Positions 32,686 to 43,580 are shown, counted from the stretch's first letter. The stretch is DNA of 64,000 nt from a virus (IMGVR_UViG_2940228231_000002:32001-96000); one strand, 5' to 3'. Numbers and translations are program-made. Notes: generated by a model from the sequence alone, not told the origin.

Positions 32686-33573
32686 ATGATTAACTATTAT
32701 TGCCCTGATTTTTTCATGGGAATAAAAACATATTTACATCTTTGCGAAATGAAGCAAGTAGTCCCTACTGTGTTTTATGATGACGTTAATATTAAAGCCG
32801 TGTTTGGTAGTTTTCCAAACATGACTTGGAATGGTGGCGGGACTTTCTTTGGCCCGATGCTCGCAGATGTAAATGAGATTCGTAATGTATTTTCCGTCTA
32901 TAAAAAATTGAATATCAAACTTCAATTAACAATGACCAATGCACTCTTGGAAAAAGAAGATTGCTATGATAGATATGGAAATACCGTACTGCGAATTATA
33001 AGTGAAGAATATAGTGATGATTTTGAGATACTAGTCTCTTCCCCTATTTTAGAGGAATACATAAGGGAGAAATACCCGTCACTAAAAATTAGCAGAAGTA
33101 TTATTGCAGCAAAAGATGATTGCGACTATAGTGAGGCGTTGAAGAAATACGAAAATGTGGTTATGCCAATTCGTCATTTGGAGAATTTTGAGCTATTGAA
33201 TTCTTTTTCGCCAGAAGAAAAACGACACATAGAGCTATTATGCAATGACCCCTGCCCTCGTGATTGTCCTAGACTATATACTCACTATCCAGAGTATGCG
33301 AAAGCTACACTGTTAATGGAGACACTGAACCCAAGTTTAAACCCAGCGTTGAATTGCAATAATCATGTGCCACTATCTGAGAAGTCGCTGAGTGCGAACT
33401 CAAGAGTGACGTATGATGAAATCAAAGAAGTTTATGTCCCTATGGGATTTAGTGAATTCAAACTATCTGGCCGTGGAAATGTGGTCAATATAATTACTAG
33501 TATAGTGCCATACTTTATTAAACCTGAATATCAAGTCGGGGCTATCAAGCACCTGCTGATGAATAATCAGTAA
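32686..33573 (+). CDS. U32-family-like Fe-S protein, paralog 1
   Basis: WNGG; IELLCNDPCPRDC; GFSEFKLSGR. Confidence 0.6.
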   Translation: MINYYCPDFFMGIKTYLHLCEMKQVVPTVFYDDVNIKAVFGSFPNMTWNGGGTFFGPMLADVNEIRNVFSVYKKLNIKLQLTMTNALLEKEDCYDRYGNTVLRIISEEYSDDFEILVSSPILEEYIREKYPSLKISRSIIAAKDDCDYSEALKKYENVVMPIRHLENFELLNSFSPEEKRHIELLCNDPCPRDCPRLYTHYPEYAKATLLMETLNPSLNPALNCNNHVPLSEKSLSANSRVTYDEIKEVYVPMGFSEFKLSGRGNVVNIITSIVPYFIKPEYQVGAIKHLLMNNQ

Positions 33574-33586
33574 AGGTTGGTGCACG

Positions 33587-35656
33587 ATGAATAAATTATT
33601 TGAAAGCCCGCCTAATGTCAGAGAGGGAAAAACTAAAGAAGAGCTACTTGAAATGTTAGAAGGAGAATTCTGGAGAAATAAATATGGAGATATTCATAAC
33701 GGATTTGATCTGGAGATTATTGTATCTAGTGGCTGTAATTTAGGATGTCGTGGTTGTGACCACTTCTCCCCCATTGCTAATGAATGGTTTGTTGACGTTG
33801 GCACTCTTAAAGAAGAACTTTTAATGCTAAAAGAAAGACTTCCTATGATTAAGAATGTTTTTCTAATTGGAGGAGAGCCACTGTTACACCCAAATTTTGT
33901 AGACGTGGCATGTTTAACACGTGACATTTTTCCAAATAGTGATGTAATTACATATACTAATGGACTGCTCATGAATAGTTTCAGTGAAGAGGATTATATT
34001 ACTTTTTCAGAAAAACGCATCAGCTTCATCATGACAAGATATCAAGTTGGATTTGATTATGAAAAAGCCAGTGCAAATCTGGATAAATATAAGATTAACA
34101 ACAACTACACACACACTAAGCTGATATTTGGTGGTTATACAGTAAATCCTGAAGGCACCGAAGATCAAACTCAGTTTTATACGTGTACAAAAACACAGAC
34201 ACCAGTGCTATCGCTAAAAGAAGGAAAGATATATAAATGCCCTTTTAGTTGTTGCTCTGGGAATATTACAAACATACATGAAAAGATAGTTATTCCTGAA
34301 ACAGAAAATGATTATTTGGATATTAGAGAAATAACTATAGAAAGATTAGACGCATTCTGTCACACTCCAAACGATAGATGCAAATATTGTGTCGAGTCAG
34401 GAAGTGGGTCTTGGCTGTGGCGACCTTATGATGGAGATGAGAATTCTTACTTGTATAGTTTGAAAGATTATTATCTTTATGATTATGATCAATACAATCT
34501 CTTGATCAATAACAAAGACTACGCAGATACTATTTTAGACAATGAAGAATTGTCTGCAAAGCTAGATTATAAATTTCATGAAAATGTTAGTAGTAAAATA
34601 ATCAAAAGATATAAGTCAAGTAAGATTGACATTATTGTCCCCTTCTATAATTTGACGAATGAGATTATCTTACAGTTAATGGATACGCTGGCAAGTCAAA
34701 CAATTATAGATGATTGTGTTGTCTACATGATTAGTGACGGAGATCCACGAGAAGCTGATATTTATTCTGCTTTCGACAGGGAATTCATAAACTGTGTAAT
34801 GCTAAAAAATGAGGTTCGTGGTGGCCCAGGTGTTGCCCGTAATAAAGCCTTGGAATGCTGTTACGGAGAGTATATTTACTTTCTCGATGCAGACGATAGG
34901 TTTGCAGATAGCGACTCTTTAGAGCGACTATATGAGTTTGCCAAAGATGGTCAATATGAAATTGTAACACATGAGGTTATTGTTGAAGATAAGCATCATG
35001 AGTCAAATTTAAGCGACGACAGAAATATAACAAGGAATTTCTATTTAGGAGATTTTATCAGAGAAAATAAAATTCTGTTTCCCCCACTGCATTTTGGAGA
35101 AGATGGTTATCTTGCTAACTTGGCTCAACATCATAAAGCAAGAGAGGGATTTATTCCTTATAAGGCATATGTCTATAATAAAAACATCAACAGCGAGAAA
35201 GCATGTCGTAATGACTACTCTGACTCGGATGTAATGATTTGTACAATGATAAATAATTATTGTTGGGCAATGGACATTCATAGTCGAGGACTTGCTCAGA
35301 GTGTTGAGGATTTTTATATTCCATTTCTTAGACAGCTTGGAGATGAGTCATTTATTCAGAGCGACTCAAAAGAGAAAACAACTCTTAATTTAGCAGTTGC
35401 TTTGTGGCTTGGCGGAAGACTATACAATGATGTTTTGGTGAAGCTACCAAGTGGCTTCAAATTAAATGAAAGCGATATCAATATAGTTAATGTTGTCGTT
35501 CTCAAGCAAATCGAAGACAATGATTACGTGTTTGAGTTGGATGGGCGCACATCACACACCTTATCTTCACTTGAAAAGAAAATAATGTCTATTCTAATGA
35601 AAAAAGATAGTCTAATAGTAAAATCAGCAGTGGATTATTTGAAGGGGTGGTTGTAA
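33587..35656 (+). CDS. radical SAM-GT2 glycosyltransferase fusion
   Basis: CNLGCRGC and GGEPLLHP; IIVPFYN, GPGVARN, FLDADD. Confidence 0.88.
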   Translation: MNKLFESPPNVREGKTKEELLEMLEGEFWRNKYGDIHNGFDLEIIVSSGCNLGCRGCDHFSPIANEWFVDVGTLKEELLMLKERLPMIKNVFLIGGEPLLHPNFVDVACLTRDIFPNSDVITYTNGLLMNSFSEEDYITFSEKRISFIMTRYQVGFDYEKASANLDKYKINNNYTHTKLIFGGYTVNPEGTEDQTQFYTCTKTQTPVLSLKEGKIYKCPFSCCSGNITNIHEKIVIPETENDYLDIREITIERLDAFCHTPNDRCKYCVESGSGSWLWRPYDGDENSYLYSLKDYYLYDYDQYNLLINNKDYADTILDNEELSAKLDYKFHENVSSKIIKRYKSSKIDIIVPFYNLTNEIILQLMDTLASQTIIDDCVVYMISDGDPREADIYSAFDREFINCVMLKNEVRGGPGVARNKALECCYGEYIYFLDADDRFADSDSLERLYEFAKDGQYEIVTHEVIVEDKHHESNLSDDRNITRNFYLGDFIRENKILFPPLHFGEDGYLANLAQHHKAREGFIPYKAYVYNKNINSEKACRNDYSDSDVMICTMINNYCWAMDIHSRGLAQSVEDFYIPFLRQLGDESFIQSDSKEKTTLNLAVALWLGGRLYNDVLVKLPSGFKLNESDINIVNVVVLKQIEDNDYVFELDGRTSHTLSSLEKKIMSILMKKDSLIVKSAVDYLKGWL

Positions 35657-42136: not shown

Positions 42137-42139
42137 GAT

Positions 42140-42787
42140 ATGCAAAAAATACTTACGATTGACTTTGATGTGGTTATGGCACCGAGTATAGACACCTATA
42201 ATAATCTAATTCCTGGAGCCAAATGGGAAGAATTAAACAAGATGCCAATGATGAAAAATCTACAGGCTGACTATATTCATTACCAAAGACTAACAAAGTT
42301 GGTGCTATCCTTATCAAAGCAGATGCCTCGTGAAGATATATTCTTCATAGAAAATCATGGAAAGATAGTTGACTTAGTAGAGCACGGTGACGACATAGGT
42401 TTAATCAACATCGATCATCACCACGATATTAAATATCCGAAAAACAAAGTGCCTGAAGGTATATGCACTTGTGGTAATTGGGTGTCAGAATTGCTGACCA
42501 ATAGTCGTAGTGTTGGACATCTTTGGATTAACAACCCCACATCTAAAATGCCAGATGAAGATGTTTCAGGAAACTATATTTTTGAACATGCTCTGCTTGA
42601 AGATTACGACCTACAGAAGATTGGAGTTCCAGACAAAATGTTTCTCTGTCTATCAGAGCCTTGGATTCCACCACAATATAGACCACTGTTCTTTTTGTGG
42701 GTTGATATGCTGAGCGTAGAGTTTGACCATGAATATTTAGTGGACTTCTCTATGCCAAGAAATGAAGGTGTTGTATATGAAAAATAA
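42140..42787 (+). CDS. UPF0489/arginase-like metal-binding protein
   Basis: IDFD; NIDHHHD; GNWV; SEPWIPP. Confidence 0.6.
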   Translation: MQKILTIDFDVVMAPSIDTYNNLIPGAKWEELNKMPMMKNLQADYIHYQRLTKLVLSLSKQMPREDIFFIENHGKIVDLVEHGDDIGLINIDHHHDIKYPKNKVPEGICTCGNWVSELLTNSRSVGHLWINNPTSKMPDEDVSGNYIFEHALLEDYDLQKIGVPDKMFLCLSEPWIPPQYRPLFFLWVDMLSVEFDHEYLVDFSMPRNEGVVYEK

Positions 42788-43580
42788 AACACTTCTAGTA
42801 TCAAGAGAACATCGGTCTGAGAATACCATTGTCAGATGTGGGAAGAATAATCAAGTTGAGTTTGGAGGAAACACTCCTCAGATAATTGCAGGGCCTTGTG
42901 CTGTTGAGTCTAGAGAACAAATACTGCGAATAGCAAGGAATGTGCAAAAGTGCGGAGCCACACTATTAAGAGGTGGAGCTTTTAAGCCAAGAACCTCTCC
43001 CTACTCTTTTCAAGGACTAGGAGAATTAGGTCTGCAATATTTACTAGAAGCAAAAGAACAAACTGGACTACCTGTAGTTTCTGAAATAATGGATGTATCA
43101 CAAATAGATCTATTTGAAAATGTAGACATATTACAAGTTGGTGCACGGAGTATGCAAAACTTCCAATTATTAAAATCACTTGGACAGTTGAATAAGCCAA
43201 TTCTACTCAAGCGAGGGTTTCAAAATACAGTAGACGAGTTTTTGCTATGTGCTGAATATTTAATGTCTCACGGAAATAGAAAGATAATTTTATGCGAAAG
43301 AGGAATCAGGAGCTTTGACCCGCTGATGCCTTTCTCCTTAGATATTAGTGTTGTTCCATTGCTAAAAGAAAAGACGCACTTACCAATAATTGTAGACCCA
43401 AGCCACGCAACTGCAAATAGTAAATTAGTTGTGCCAATGGCTAGGGCTGCTCTGCTCGTTGGAGCTGATGGTGTTATGGTAGAAACACATGATAAACCAG
43501 AAGATGCTCTATGTGACGGAGACAATGCTATTGGATATGAAGAATTGAAATCAATAACTATGAATAAACGGGAGACGTAA
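42777..43580 (+). CDS. aroF: DAHP synthase, class I-beta
   Basis: IAGPCAVES; RGGAFKPRTSPYSFQGLG; LLKRG; LCERGIR; VDPSH. Confidence 0.95.
   Translation: MKNKTLLVSREHRSENTIVRCGKNNQVEFGGNTPQIIAGPCAVESREQILRIARNVQKCGATLLRGGAFKPRTSPYSFQGLGELGLQYLLEAKEQTGLPVVSEIMDVSQIDLFENVDILQVGARSMQNFQLLKSLGQLNKPILLKRGFQNTVDEFLLCAEYLMSHGNRKIILCERGIRSFDPLMPFSLDISVVPLLKEKTHLPIIVDPSHATANSKLVVPMARAALLVGADGVMVETHDKPEDALCDGDNAIGYEELKSITMNKRET

Follow-up and report, generated by a model that had tools for sequence, protein, structure and literature searches.

Positions 32686-43580 of the 64,000-nucleotide (nt) stretch of viral DNA analysed here (IMGVR_UViG_2940228231_000002:32001-96000, hereafter the window) hold twelve open reading frames (ORFs), all on the + strand and separated by gaps of 0-51 nt or by short overlaps (Table 1). 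We confirmed that this row encodes three radical S-adenosylmethionine (SAM) proteins, three paralogs that come closest to U32 in fold, a type I-beta 3-deoxy-D-arabino-heptulosonate 7-phosphate (DAHP) synthase, and a 168-amino-acid (aa) protein with a repeat tail, which we call the target. An earlier note on this DNA had described an operon lying between the tRNAs and the terminase, and every gene that it listed was found on the + strand and in that setting. Just 5' of the row is an array of seven tRNA calls (30909-32657), in which ARAGORN placed a tRNA-Asp with the unusual anticodon ATC (32119-32195) and a tRNA with an undetermined two-base anticodon (32582-32657). On the downstream side, a 353-aa ORF is followed by the terminase operon, with the terminase large subunit at 44690-46585 and the portal at 46600-48114. 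The window reads cleanly in the standard genetic code, and a megablast of the region against GenBank phages gave no match. It corresponds to positions 57740-121739 of a 428-kb contig that belongs to a bacterial genome (2.17 Mb, 99% complete), and is therefore a prophage. The host genome encodes NrdD, terminal oxidases were not found in it, and from its sequence the host looks anaerobic. As set out below, the target and two of the radical SAM enzymes form the conserved core of a mobile module, which probably serves to mature the tail of the target after translation.

Table 1. Features of the gene row at 32686-43580. Positions are counted from the first letter of the window; GT2, glycosyltransferase family 2; AF2, AlphaFold2; pLDDT, predicted local distance difference test; E, expectation value.
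Feature	Position	Strand	Length (aa)	Remarks
U32a, third U32-like paralog	32686..33573	+	295	accessory; paralog of U32c, E 7.6e-25
Radical SAM-GT2 fusion (rSAM-GT2)	33587..35656	+	689	accessory; Pfam Radical_SAM and Glycos_transf_2
Cys-rich protein	35657..36208	+	183	accessory; no family match
Small protein 5' of target	36162..36587	+		likely start near 36210
Target protein	36589..37095	+	168	helical N-domain (residues 8-103) and disordered tail (104-168)
Repeat tail of target	36898..37092	+		33-nt and 45-nt units
rSAM2	37124..38578	+	484	core; twitch-like auxiliary Cys; matches phrog_1802
rSAM3, radical SAM/SPASM	38585..40000	+	471	core; CX3CX2C and seven-Cys SPASM pattern
Small protein between rSAM3 and U32b	39945..40388	+		likely start near 39993
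U32b, U32-like, first of pair	40390..41262	+	290	adjoins U32c
U32c, U32-like TIM barrel, second of pair	41264..42136	+	290	AF2 pLDDT 94
g42140, phage protein	42140..42787	+	215	accessory; DHHHD string; no family match
DAHP synthase, type I-beta	42762..43580	+	272	catalytic core only; outside common module

We compared the row with about 85 loci from phages and metagenome-assembled genomes (MAGs), 22 of them anchored on U32c and 63, all from phages, anchored on rSAM3. Fourteen of the 22 U32c-anchored loci shared the order small ORF, target, rSAM2, rSAM3, small ORF, U32b, U32c. Among the rSAM3-anchored loci, rSAM2 adjoined rSAM3 on its upstream side in 60 of 63, a recognisable target N-domain lay 0.3-1.5 kb 5' in 21, and at least one U32-like gene was present in 30. 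A similar repeat-tailed ORF preceded rSAM2 in seven of the nine profile-negative loci that were inspected by eye, and in relatives the target gene lies directly 5' of rSAM2; the repeat protein, which the earlier note had taken for the substrate amid these enzymes, is a recurring neighbour of the radical SAM pair. Other genes of the row were rarer (rSAM-GT2 in 6/63, with YcaO joining in 8/63) or missing from the rSAM3-anchored loci altogether (DAHP synthase and g42140, 0/63 each). By this comparison of gene orders, the invariant core is the target with the rSAM2-rSAM3 pair, the frequent add-on is a U32-like gene or the U32b-U32c pair, in about half of the loci, and the variable extras are YcaO, GT2, rSAM-GT2 and a reductase-ferredoxin fusion. 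DAHP synthase and g42140 fall outside the conserved module. Since the window and the related loci have only the module genes in common, the module is mobile and moves as a unit. Thus conservation across phages held for the target and the radical SAM pair and failed for DAHP synthase and g42140, while rSAM-GT2 and the third U32 copy were kept in a minority of loci.

The relatives are mostly phages of 120-220 kb, several with terminal repeats, and the target and rSAM3 families comprise more than 570 and more than 200 clusters, respectively, mostly in gut phage data. Loci L004-L011, L014, L016, L019, L024 and L025 contain in-frame TAG only, with many TAGs inside module genes, which suggests that these phages translate TAG as an amino acid; suppressor-type tRNA(CTA) genes were called at L010:4731-4801 and L011:14547-14621. 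Late genes have been associated with such an in-frame TAG pattern (bioRxiv 10.1101/2021.08.26.457843). One TAG-recoded phage carries the whole module twice (L019:52-19086); its two targets differ, and it has three rSAM-GT2 genes.

Sublancin benefits the SP-beta lysogen, and on that model the module could encode a bacteriocin-type ribosomally synthesised and post-translationally modified peptide (RiPP) that benefits the lysogen and is unrelated to the virus particle. The window does belong to a prophage within a bacterial contig, and the row encodes a GT2 enzyme, as glycocin systems do. However, family scans of the gene row found no exporter, leader peptidase or immunity gene, and inspection of the target revealed neither a signal nor a double-glycine leader. 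Moreover, the genes run directly into the terminase operon, and most relatives are the large phages described above, several with terminal repeats and with in-frame TAG in their module genes. We therefore give a bacteriocin little credence.

The target gene is single-copy in the genome. In the AF2 model of its product, helices span residues 11-27, 45-60 and 85-99 with pLDDT of 82-94, and the tail falls below 50. Compared by VIA, the N-domain scored at best Z 7.0, to generic helical bundles. A profile of this domain recovered 570 clusters at E<=1e-3 among 1.8 billion representatives; most of these proteins carry the domain at the N-terminus, followed by a tail of 20-280 aa, and a few carry it at the C-terminus. 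The swapped order, with the repeat tail first and the helical domain last, was seen at L020:8857-9684 and in homologs P0295, P0305, P0313, P0316, P0327 and P0336. In another homolog (P0283, 373 aa), the repeat tail is followed by an apparent Hint/intein-type domain that begins C-L-I-P-G-T and ends H-N, a hint that the tail may undergo self-cleavage or be ligated. In 10 of 13 diverse target homologs, a Cys stands at the end of the helical domain, immediately ahead of the tail (36589-36912 in the window). As a candidate relationship, a structural lead from the Atlas would place the N-domain close to the 'modification target Cys-rich repeat' proteins of phages (PF27846).

Tandem Repeats Finder (TRF) reported the repeat of the tail at 36919-37087, where the two kinds of unit encode 11 and 15 residues, and the tail contains ten (F/Y/W)-N-S motifs. 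Two 15-aa units that are identical in protein sequence show 7 synonymous differences and no non-synonymous one, and the peptide sequence of the tail is therefore under purifying selection. Over 128 tails, the composition was 19% S, 13% N, 13% F, 11% G, 7% T and 4.5% Y; the tails are hypervariable, yet always enriched in aromatic residues, Asn, Ser and Gly. In the close homolog set, (F/Y/W)-N-(S/T) occurred 4.4 times as often as in shuffled tails. The N-glycosylation sequon was rejected as the common tail motif, as N-x-S/T exceeded the shuffles only 1.5-fold vs. 4.4-fold for aromatic-N-S/T. The tail in the window has no Cys past residue 101, and relatives' tails average 3% Cys.

All three radical SAM proteins carry a CxxxCxxC motif (CNLGCRGC in rSAM-GT2, CNLQCKYC in rSAM2 and CNQKCEYC in rSAM3), and they are not close paralogs of one another. 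In rSAM2, the motif cysteines C19, C23 and C26, together with C320, C338 and C441, were invariant in 14 orthologs. The SPASM cysteines of rSAM3 (C325, C343, C390, C393, C399, C403 and C422, including CX2CX5CX3C) were invariant in 15 orthologs and in 30 aligned relatives, and the full seven-Cys pattern occurs only in rSAM3 among the three proteins. Motifs and Pfam agree in this respect with the earlier description of three radical SAM domains, one with SPASM and one fused to GT2. The rSAM3 family weakly matched only peptide or protein maturase models, all far below cut-off (of 30 relatives, 30 matched PapB, 29 QhpD, 27 nif11, 15 SCIFF, 12 YhhB, 11 XyeB and 8 HxsB). The best match of rSAM3 in the PDB was CteB (5WGG, E 1.3e-4); PDB searches with the single sequences of rSAM2 and rSAM3 were uninformative.

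U32 is a large family of twelve subfamilies, most of them unstudied. The three U32-like proteins of the row are real paralogs (E 7.6e-25 and 2.4e-16) in which E183, L184, N187, C190 and C194 are invariant, so the E-L-x-x-N-x-x-C-x3-C motif noted in them was borne out by alignment, as was a K-L/I-x-G-R motif in two of the three. U32b adjoins U32c in about 17 of the U32-anchored loci, and its C190-x3-C194-x5-C200-x19-C220 spacing was conserved in 17 orthologs. In U32c, Cys 191, 195 and 221 were invariant and C46 and C160 were retained at 77-82%. Orthologs of U32a, with Cys190, 194 and 224 conserved, were found in L005, L019 and six rSAM3-anchored loci. The top PDB match to the U32c model was the U32 peptidase Mk0906 (5D88; Foldseek E 6.4e-6), which VIA aligned over 214 residues (Z 14.8, root-mean-square deviation 3.5), ahead of the next TIM barrel at Z 11.9. 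The structure search that had been proposed as a check on U32 homology thus favoured the fold, whereas the Pfam profile did not: PF01136 matched 10 of 37 members of the U32-like family weakly (best E 8.5e-5), and in a search of the whole genome it found the host's canonical U32 copies only. A U32c-family profile run against PDB sequences gave no U32 match. Fold and motif agree and profile membership fails; we call the paralogs U32-like.

The background on U32 in the earlier note, of O2-independent and prephenate-dependent hydroxylation, matches the literature: the U32 proteins characterised so far use prephenate to hydroxylate aromatic rings under anaerobic conditions, and all of the well-studied members are tied to hydroxylation rather than proteolysis (PMC10990095). 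Two of these, TrhP and RlhA, act on RNA (PMC10990095), and the U32-like proteins might likewise hydroxylate RNA, for example U34 of the phage tRNAs as TrhP does, and merely lie near a separate radical SAM system. As in the window, a tRNA array lies beside the module in 9 of 12 related cassette loci that were scanned (9 of 15 with L014, L016 and L025 counted), and U32-like genes also occur without the radical SAM pair. Such adjacency is not rare, however, because large phages of this kind carry many tRNAs. No tRNA lies within 8-12 kb of six module loci or of any of the five stand-alone U32-like loci. The U32b-U32c pair sits inside the operon, 1-3 nt from its neighbours, and keeps its place in about 17 loci, and the host already has canonical U32 genes. 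A tRNA substrate, which the earlier note had offered as an alternative, thus drew on adjacency in the cassette loci and found none near the stand-alone genes; it is weakly supported and unlikely, and we consider it very improbable that the U32-like proteins hydroxylate RNA independently of the radical SAM enzymes. The five stand-alone genes (L012, L015, L017, L033 and L034) are 32-40% identical to U32c. No radical SAM gene was found within about 10 kb of them in the standard or the TAG-recoded code; only when TGA is read as Trp do three CxxxCxxC ORFs emerge, in L033 and L034.

Repeat-precursor cyclophanes, pyrroloquinoline quinone (PQQ) and mycofactocin offer analogies for yet another role of the tail, that of a sacrificial multi-core precursor which is cross-linked and then cut, with the U32-like proteins as peptidases, into small cyclic peptides or a cofactor-like compound. 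The tandem 11- and 15-residue units would suit such a precursor, the GT2 part weakly matches the mycofactocin glycosyltransferase model, and the module holds no other protease. Cyclophane RiPPs have been reported in which a dedicated protease cuts the repeat precursor uniformly (PMC12957482). In contrast, the well-studied U32 members are linked to hydroxylation and not to proteolysis (PMC10990095), and about half of the loci with the radical SAM pair have no U32-like gene. The tails of relatives are often irregular rather than built of unit repeats, and a folded domain of 100 aa conserved over 570 clusters would be unusual in a disposable leader. In our view, a sacrificial precursor is improbable.

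The remaining genes of the row vary between loci. In the fusion protein, Radical_SAM covers residues 44-144 (8e-11) and Glycos_transf_2 residues 349-495 (1.7e-17); the GT2 part passes PF00535 with 64.3 bits against a cut-off of 23.3, and its DxD motif is present as DAD in 'FLDADD'. Homologs of the fusion occur in L019 (three copies), L006 and six other loci, and relatives of the Cys-rich protein only in L019, L036 and L040. An ORF of 120-150 aa occupies the position 5' of the target in 8 relatives, with poorly conserved sequence, and one of 90-190 aa lies between rSAM3 and U32b in 10, with weakly conserved sequence. The 215-aa protein g42140 had been described as metal-binding; we saw its DHHHD string and found no match in Pfam or NCBIfam to bear that label out. 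Its only relative among the loci is in L007; all its clusters in the Atlas are phage clusters, and UPF0489 proteins make up 10% of the members of one.

The DAHP synthase gene proved genuine: it scored above the NCBIfam cut-offs (NF006421, 390.7 bits vs. 335; TIGR01361, 350.2 vs. 267.75) and matches phrog_5045. Identity as a 3-deoxy-D-manno-octulosonate 8-phosphate (KDO8P) synthase was rejected, as those models gave 102-105 bits against cut-offs of 242-314. The host has two DAHP synthase copies of its own, 53-56% identical to the phage copy. A single conserved 11-kb pathway that includes this enzyme was likewise rejected, since no homolog was found in the flanks of the U32c-anchored loci, in the 63 rSAM3-anchored loci or in five cassette-bearing phage genomes, three of them complete. 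Matches to GenBank 'phage' DAHP synthases were mostly on fragments of 2-7 kb, and the best of them (L032) lacks module genes. A link from DAHP synthase to U32 through prephenate is an attractive idea that rests on one genome; a supply of aromatic amino acids is equally possible.

Relatives of the module have extras of their own. YcaO joins it in L005, L006, L010, L014 and L016, and GT2 in others. The YcaO genes (L005:10934-12676 and 12771-14519; L006:10885-12663; L010:16298-18052; L014:701-2371; L016:470-2179 and 2850-4583) were identified by Pfam at E 1e-25 to 2e-30 (L005:10934-12676, L006, L010 and L014) and otherwise by BLAST. They are present in two copies each in L005 and L016, lie within about 1.3 kb of the module, and directly follow U32c in L005, L006, L014 and L016. 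An aldo-keto reductase fused to a two-[4Fe-4S] ferredoxin is encoded at L008:8035-9072, L009:6985-7992, L011:8059-9168 and L024:7132-8169. In L009 its gene closely follows U32c, and in the other three loci it lies between rSAM3 and U32b; the system may use this protein to donate or accept electrons. About 300 nt past the module in L004 is a gene (11182-12255) whose product has the N-terminal domain of the major tropism determinant (Mtd_N, E 2e-12), so that in this phage the module has a receptor-binding gene as its neighbour.

The target and the radical SAM pair recur together, frequently accompanied by a U32-like pair and by RiPP-type extras, a recurrence which suggests that the tail is matured after translation. 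We therefore favour, as the probable explanation, a phage-borne, RiPP-like maturation module that is expressed late. The 168-aa protein would be the substrate, with its helical domain probably the handle that the enzymes recognise, and twitch-like rSAM2 and SPASM-containing rSAM3 would act on its tail. The likeliest chemistry would be a C-C cross-link between an aromatic ring and the C-beta two residues further along, like the one that MscB forms on Phe-x-Ser. The U32b-U32c pair, taken as Fe-S proteins like UbiU-UbiV, would then probably hydroxylate aromatic rings without O2. In this phage, rSAM-GT2, the third U32 copy and DAHP synthase would be bolted-on extras that may add a sugar and may raise the supply of shikimate and prephenate or of aromatic amino acids. 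The product would be made alongside the late packaging and structural genes, and would join the particle or be freed at lysis.

Gene content, folds, Cys motifs and the conservation and mobility of the module were observed here; that the target is the substrate, each chemical step (cross-linking, hydroxylation and glycosylation), the timing and the role are inferred. The fullest version, in which U32b-U32c hydroxylate the aromatic side chains of a protein together with the radical SAM pair, DAHP synthase feeds prephenate to them, and the result is a cross-linked, catechol-like, glycosylated late appendage, is tentative and rather unlikely as a whole. If true, it would provide the first protein substrate for the U32 family, and an appendage that large gut phages produce at a late stage of infection, to serve either in the particle or at lysis. 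To our knowledge, prephenate-based hydroxylation by U32 proteins has never been seen on a protein, and our literature search found no paper describing this gene combination.

Several observations weigh against tail maturation by these enzymes. rSAM2 and rSAM3 miss every named maturase model by hundreds of bits. No RiPP recognition element (RRE) domain was found, the small neighbouring ORFs are barely conserved, and a Pfam scan of them was empty, their alignments being too poor to judge. The N-domain of the target has no significant viral or PDB match in fold (best BFVD E 0.29), and the tails of distant relatives lack the strict aromatic-N-S motif. As for the U32-like proteins, PF01136 matched none of the three window paralogs at E<=0.01, and hhalign of the U32-like profile against the host's canonical U32 sequence gave a probability of 2.8%. 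Because about half of the loci with the radical SAM pair have no U32-like gene and some phages have a single U32-like gene away from any radical SAM gene, the U32 step would be optional or separate. A conserved and mobile module with its substrate gene attached would make the roles of RiPP-type chemistry in phages, and of uncharacterised U32 subfamilies, testable.

Among known systems, the triceptides, three-residue cyclophane RiPPs (XncB, OscB, MscB/FxsB and YhhB), likewise pair a radical SAM/SPASM enzyme with an adjacent substrate in which aromatic-X-X motifs recur. MscB forms a bond between Phe C4 and the beta-carbon of Ser, and its F-x-S link fits the ten aromatic-N-S motifs found here (PMC11002830). 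In contrast to triceptides, the module has two radical SAM enzymes, a 100-aa folded domain instead of a short leader and a U32-like pair, and it resides in phages. The XyeB, YhhB, FxsB and AmcB models were not reached (for the window proteins, the best was XyeB at E 0.013, 14 bits vs. 450), with weak matches to triceptide models in 1-12 of 30 family members.

The U32-like pair finds its closest counterparts in UbiU-UbiV, TrhP and RlhA (PMC10990095). As for these, the nearest fold is U32 (5D88) and the host looks anaerobic; as for UbiU-UbiV, two distinct paralogs stand side by side; and the E-L-x-x-N-x-x-C-x3-C motif with its further cysteines may correspond to the four-Cys motif that holds the [4Fe-4S] cluster in the family. 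Unlike the known members, the proteins here are sub-threshold for Pfam, are about 290 aa long with no C-terminal extension, and presumably act on a protein tail instead of RNA or a quinone.

The HXS system (HxsD-HxsB-HxsC-HxsA; Li et al. 2026, PMC13128918) resembles the module in that two adjacent radical SAM enzymes and a small protein mature a folded-domain protein with X-x-Ser repeats, and in that the product is a modified protein rather than a small peptide. Its gene arrangement recurs here as small ORF, target, rSAM2, rSAM3 and small ORF. No Hxs model (TIGR03976-03979) matched the window proteins at E<=0.1 or the target family at E<=1, and HxsB was matched weakly by 8 of 30 rSAM3 relatives. 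The repeats also differ, being aromatic-Asn-Ser and not His-x-Ser, the module has no peptidoglycan-binding domain or export signal and includes U32-like proteins, and HXS works against phages, whereas the module is encoded by them. CrpC of Methanococcus voltae is similar in another way, as a SPASM enzyme that modifies a whole protein encoded alongside it, CrpA (Dieter et al. 2026, PMC13692751). CrpA is Cys-rich and receives thioether links, in contrast to the target, whose tail is free of Cys after residue 101. Radical SAM maturation of whole proteins, as in HXS and CrpC, has only recently been shown.

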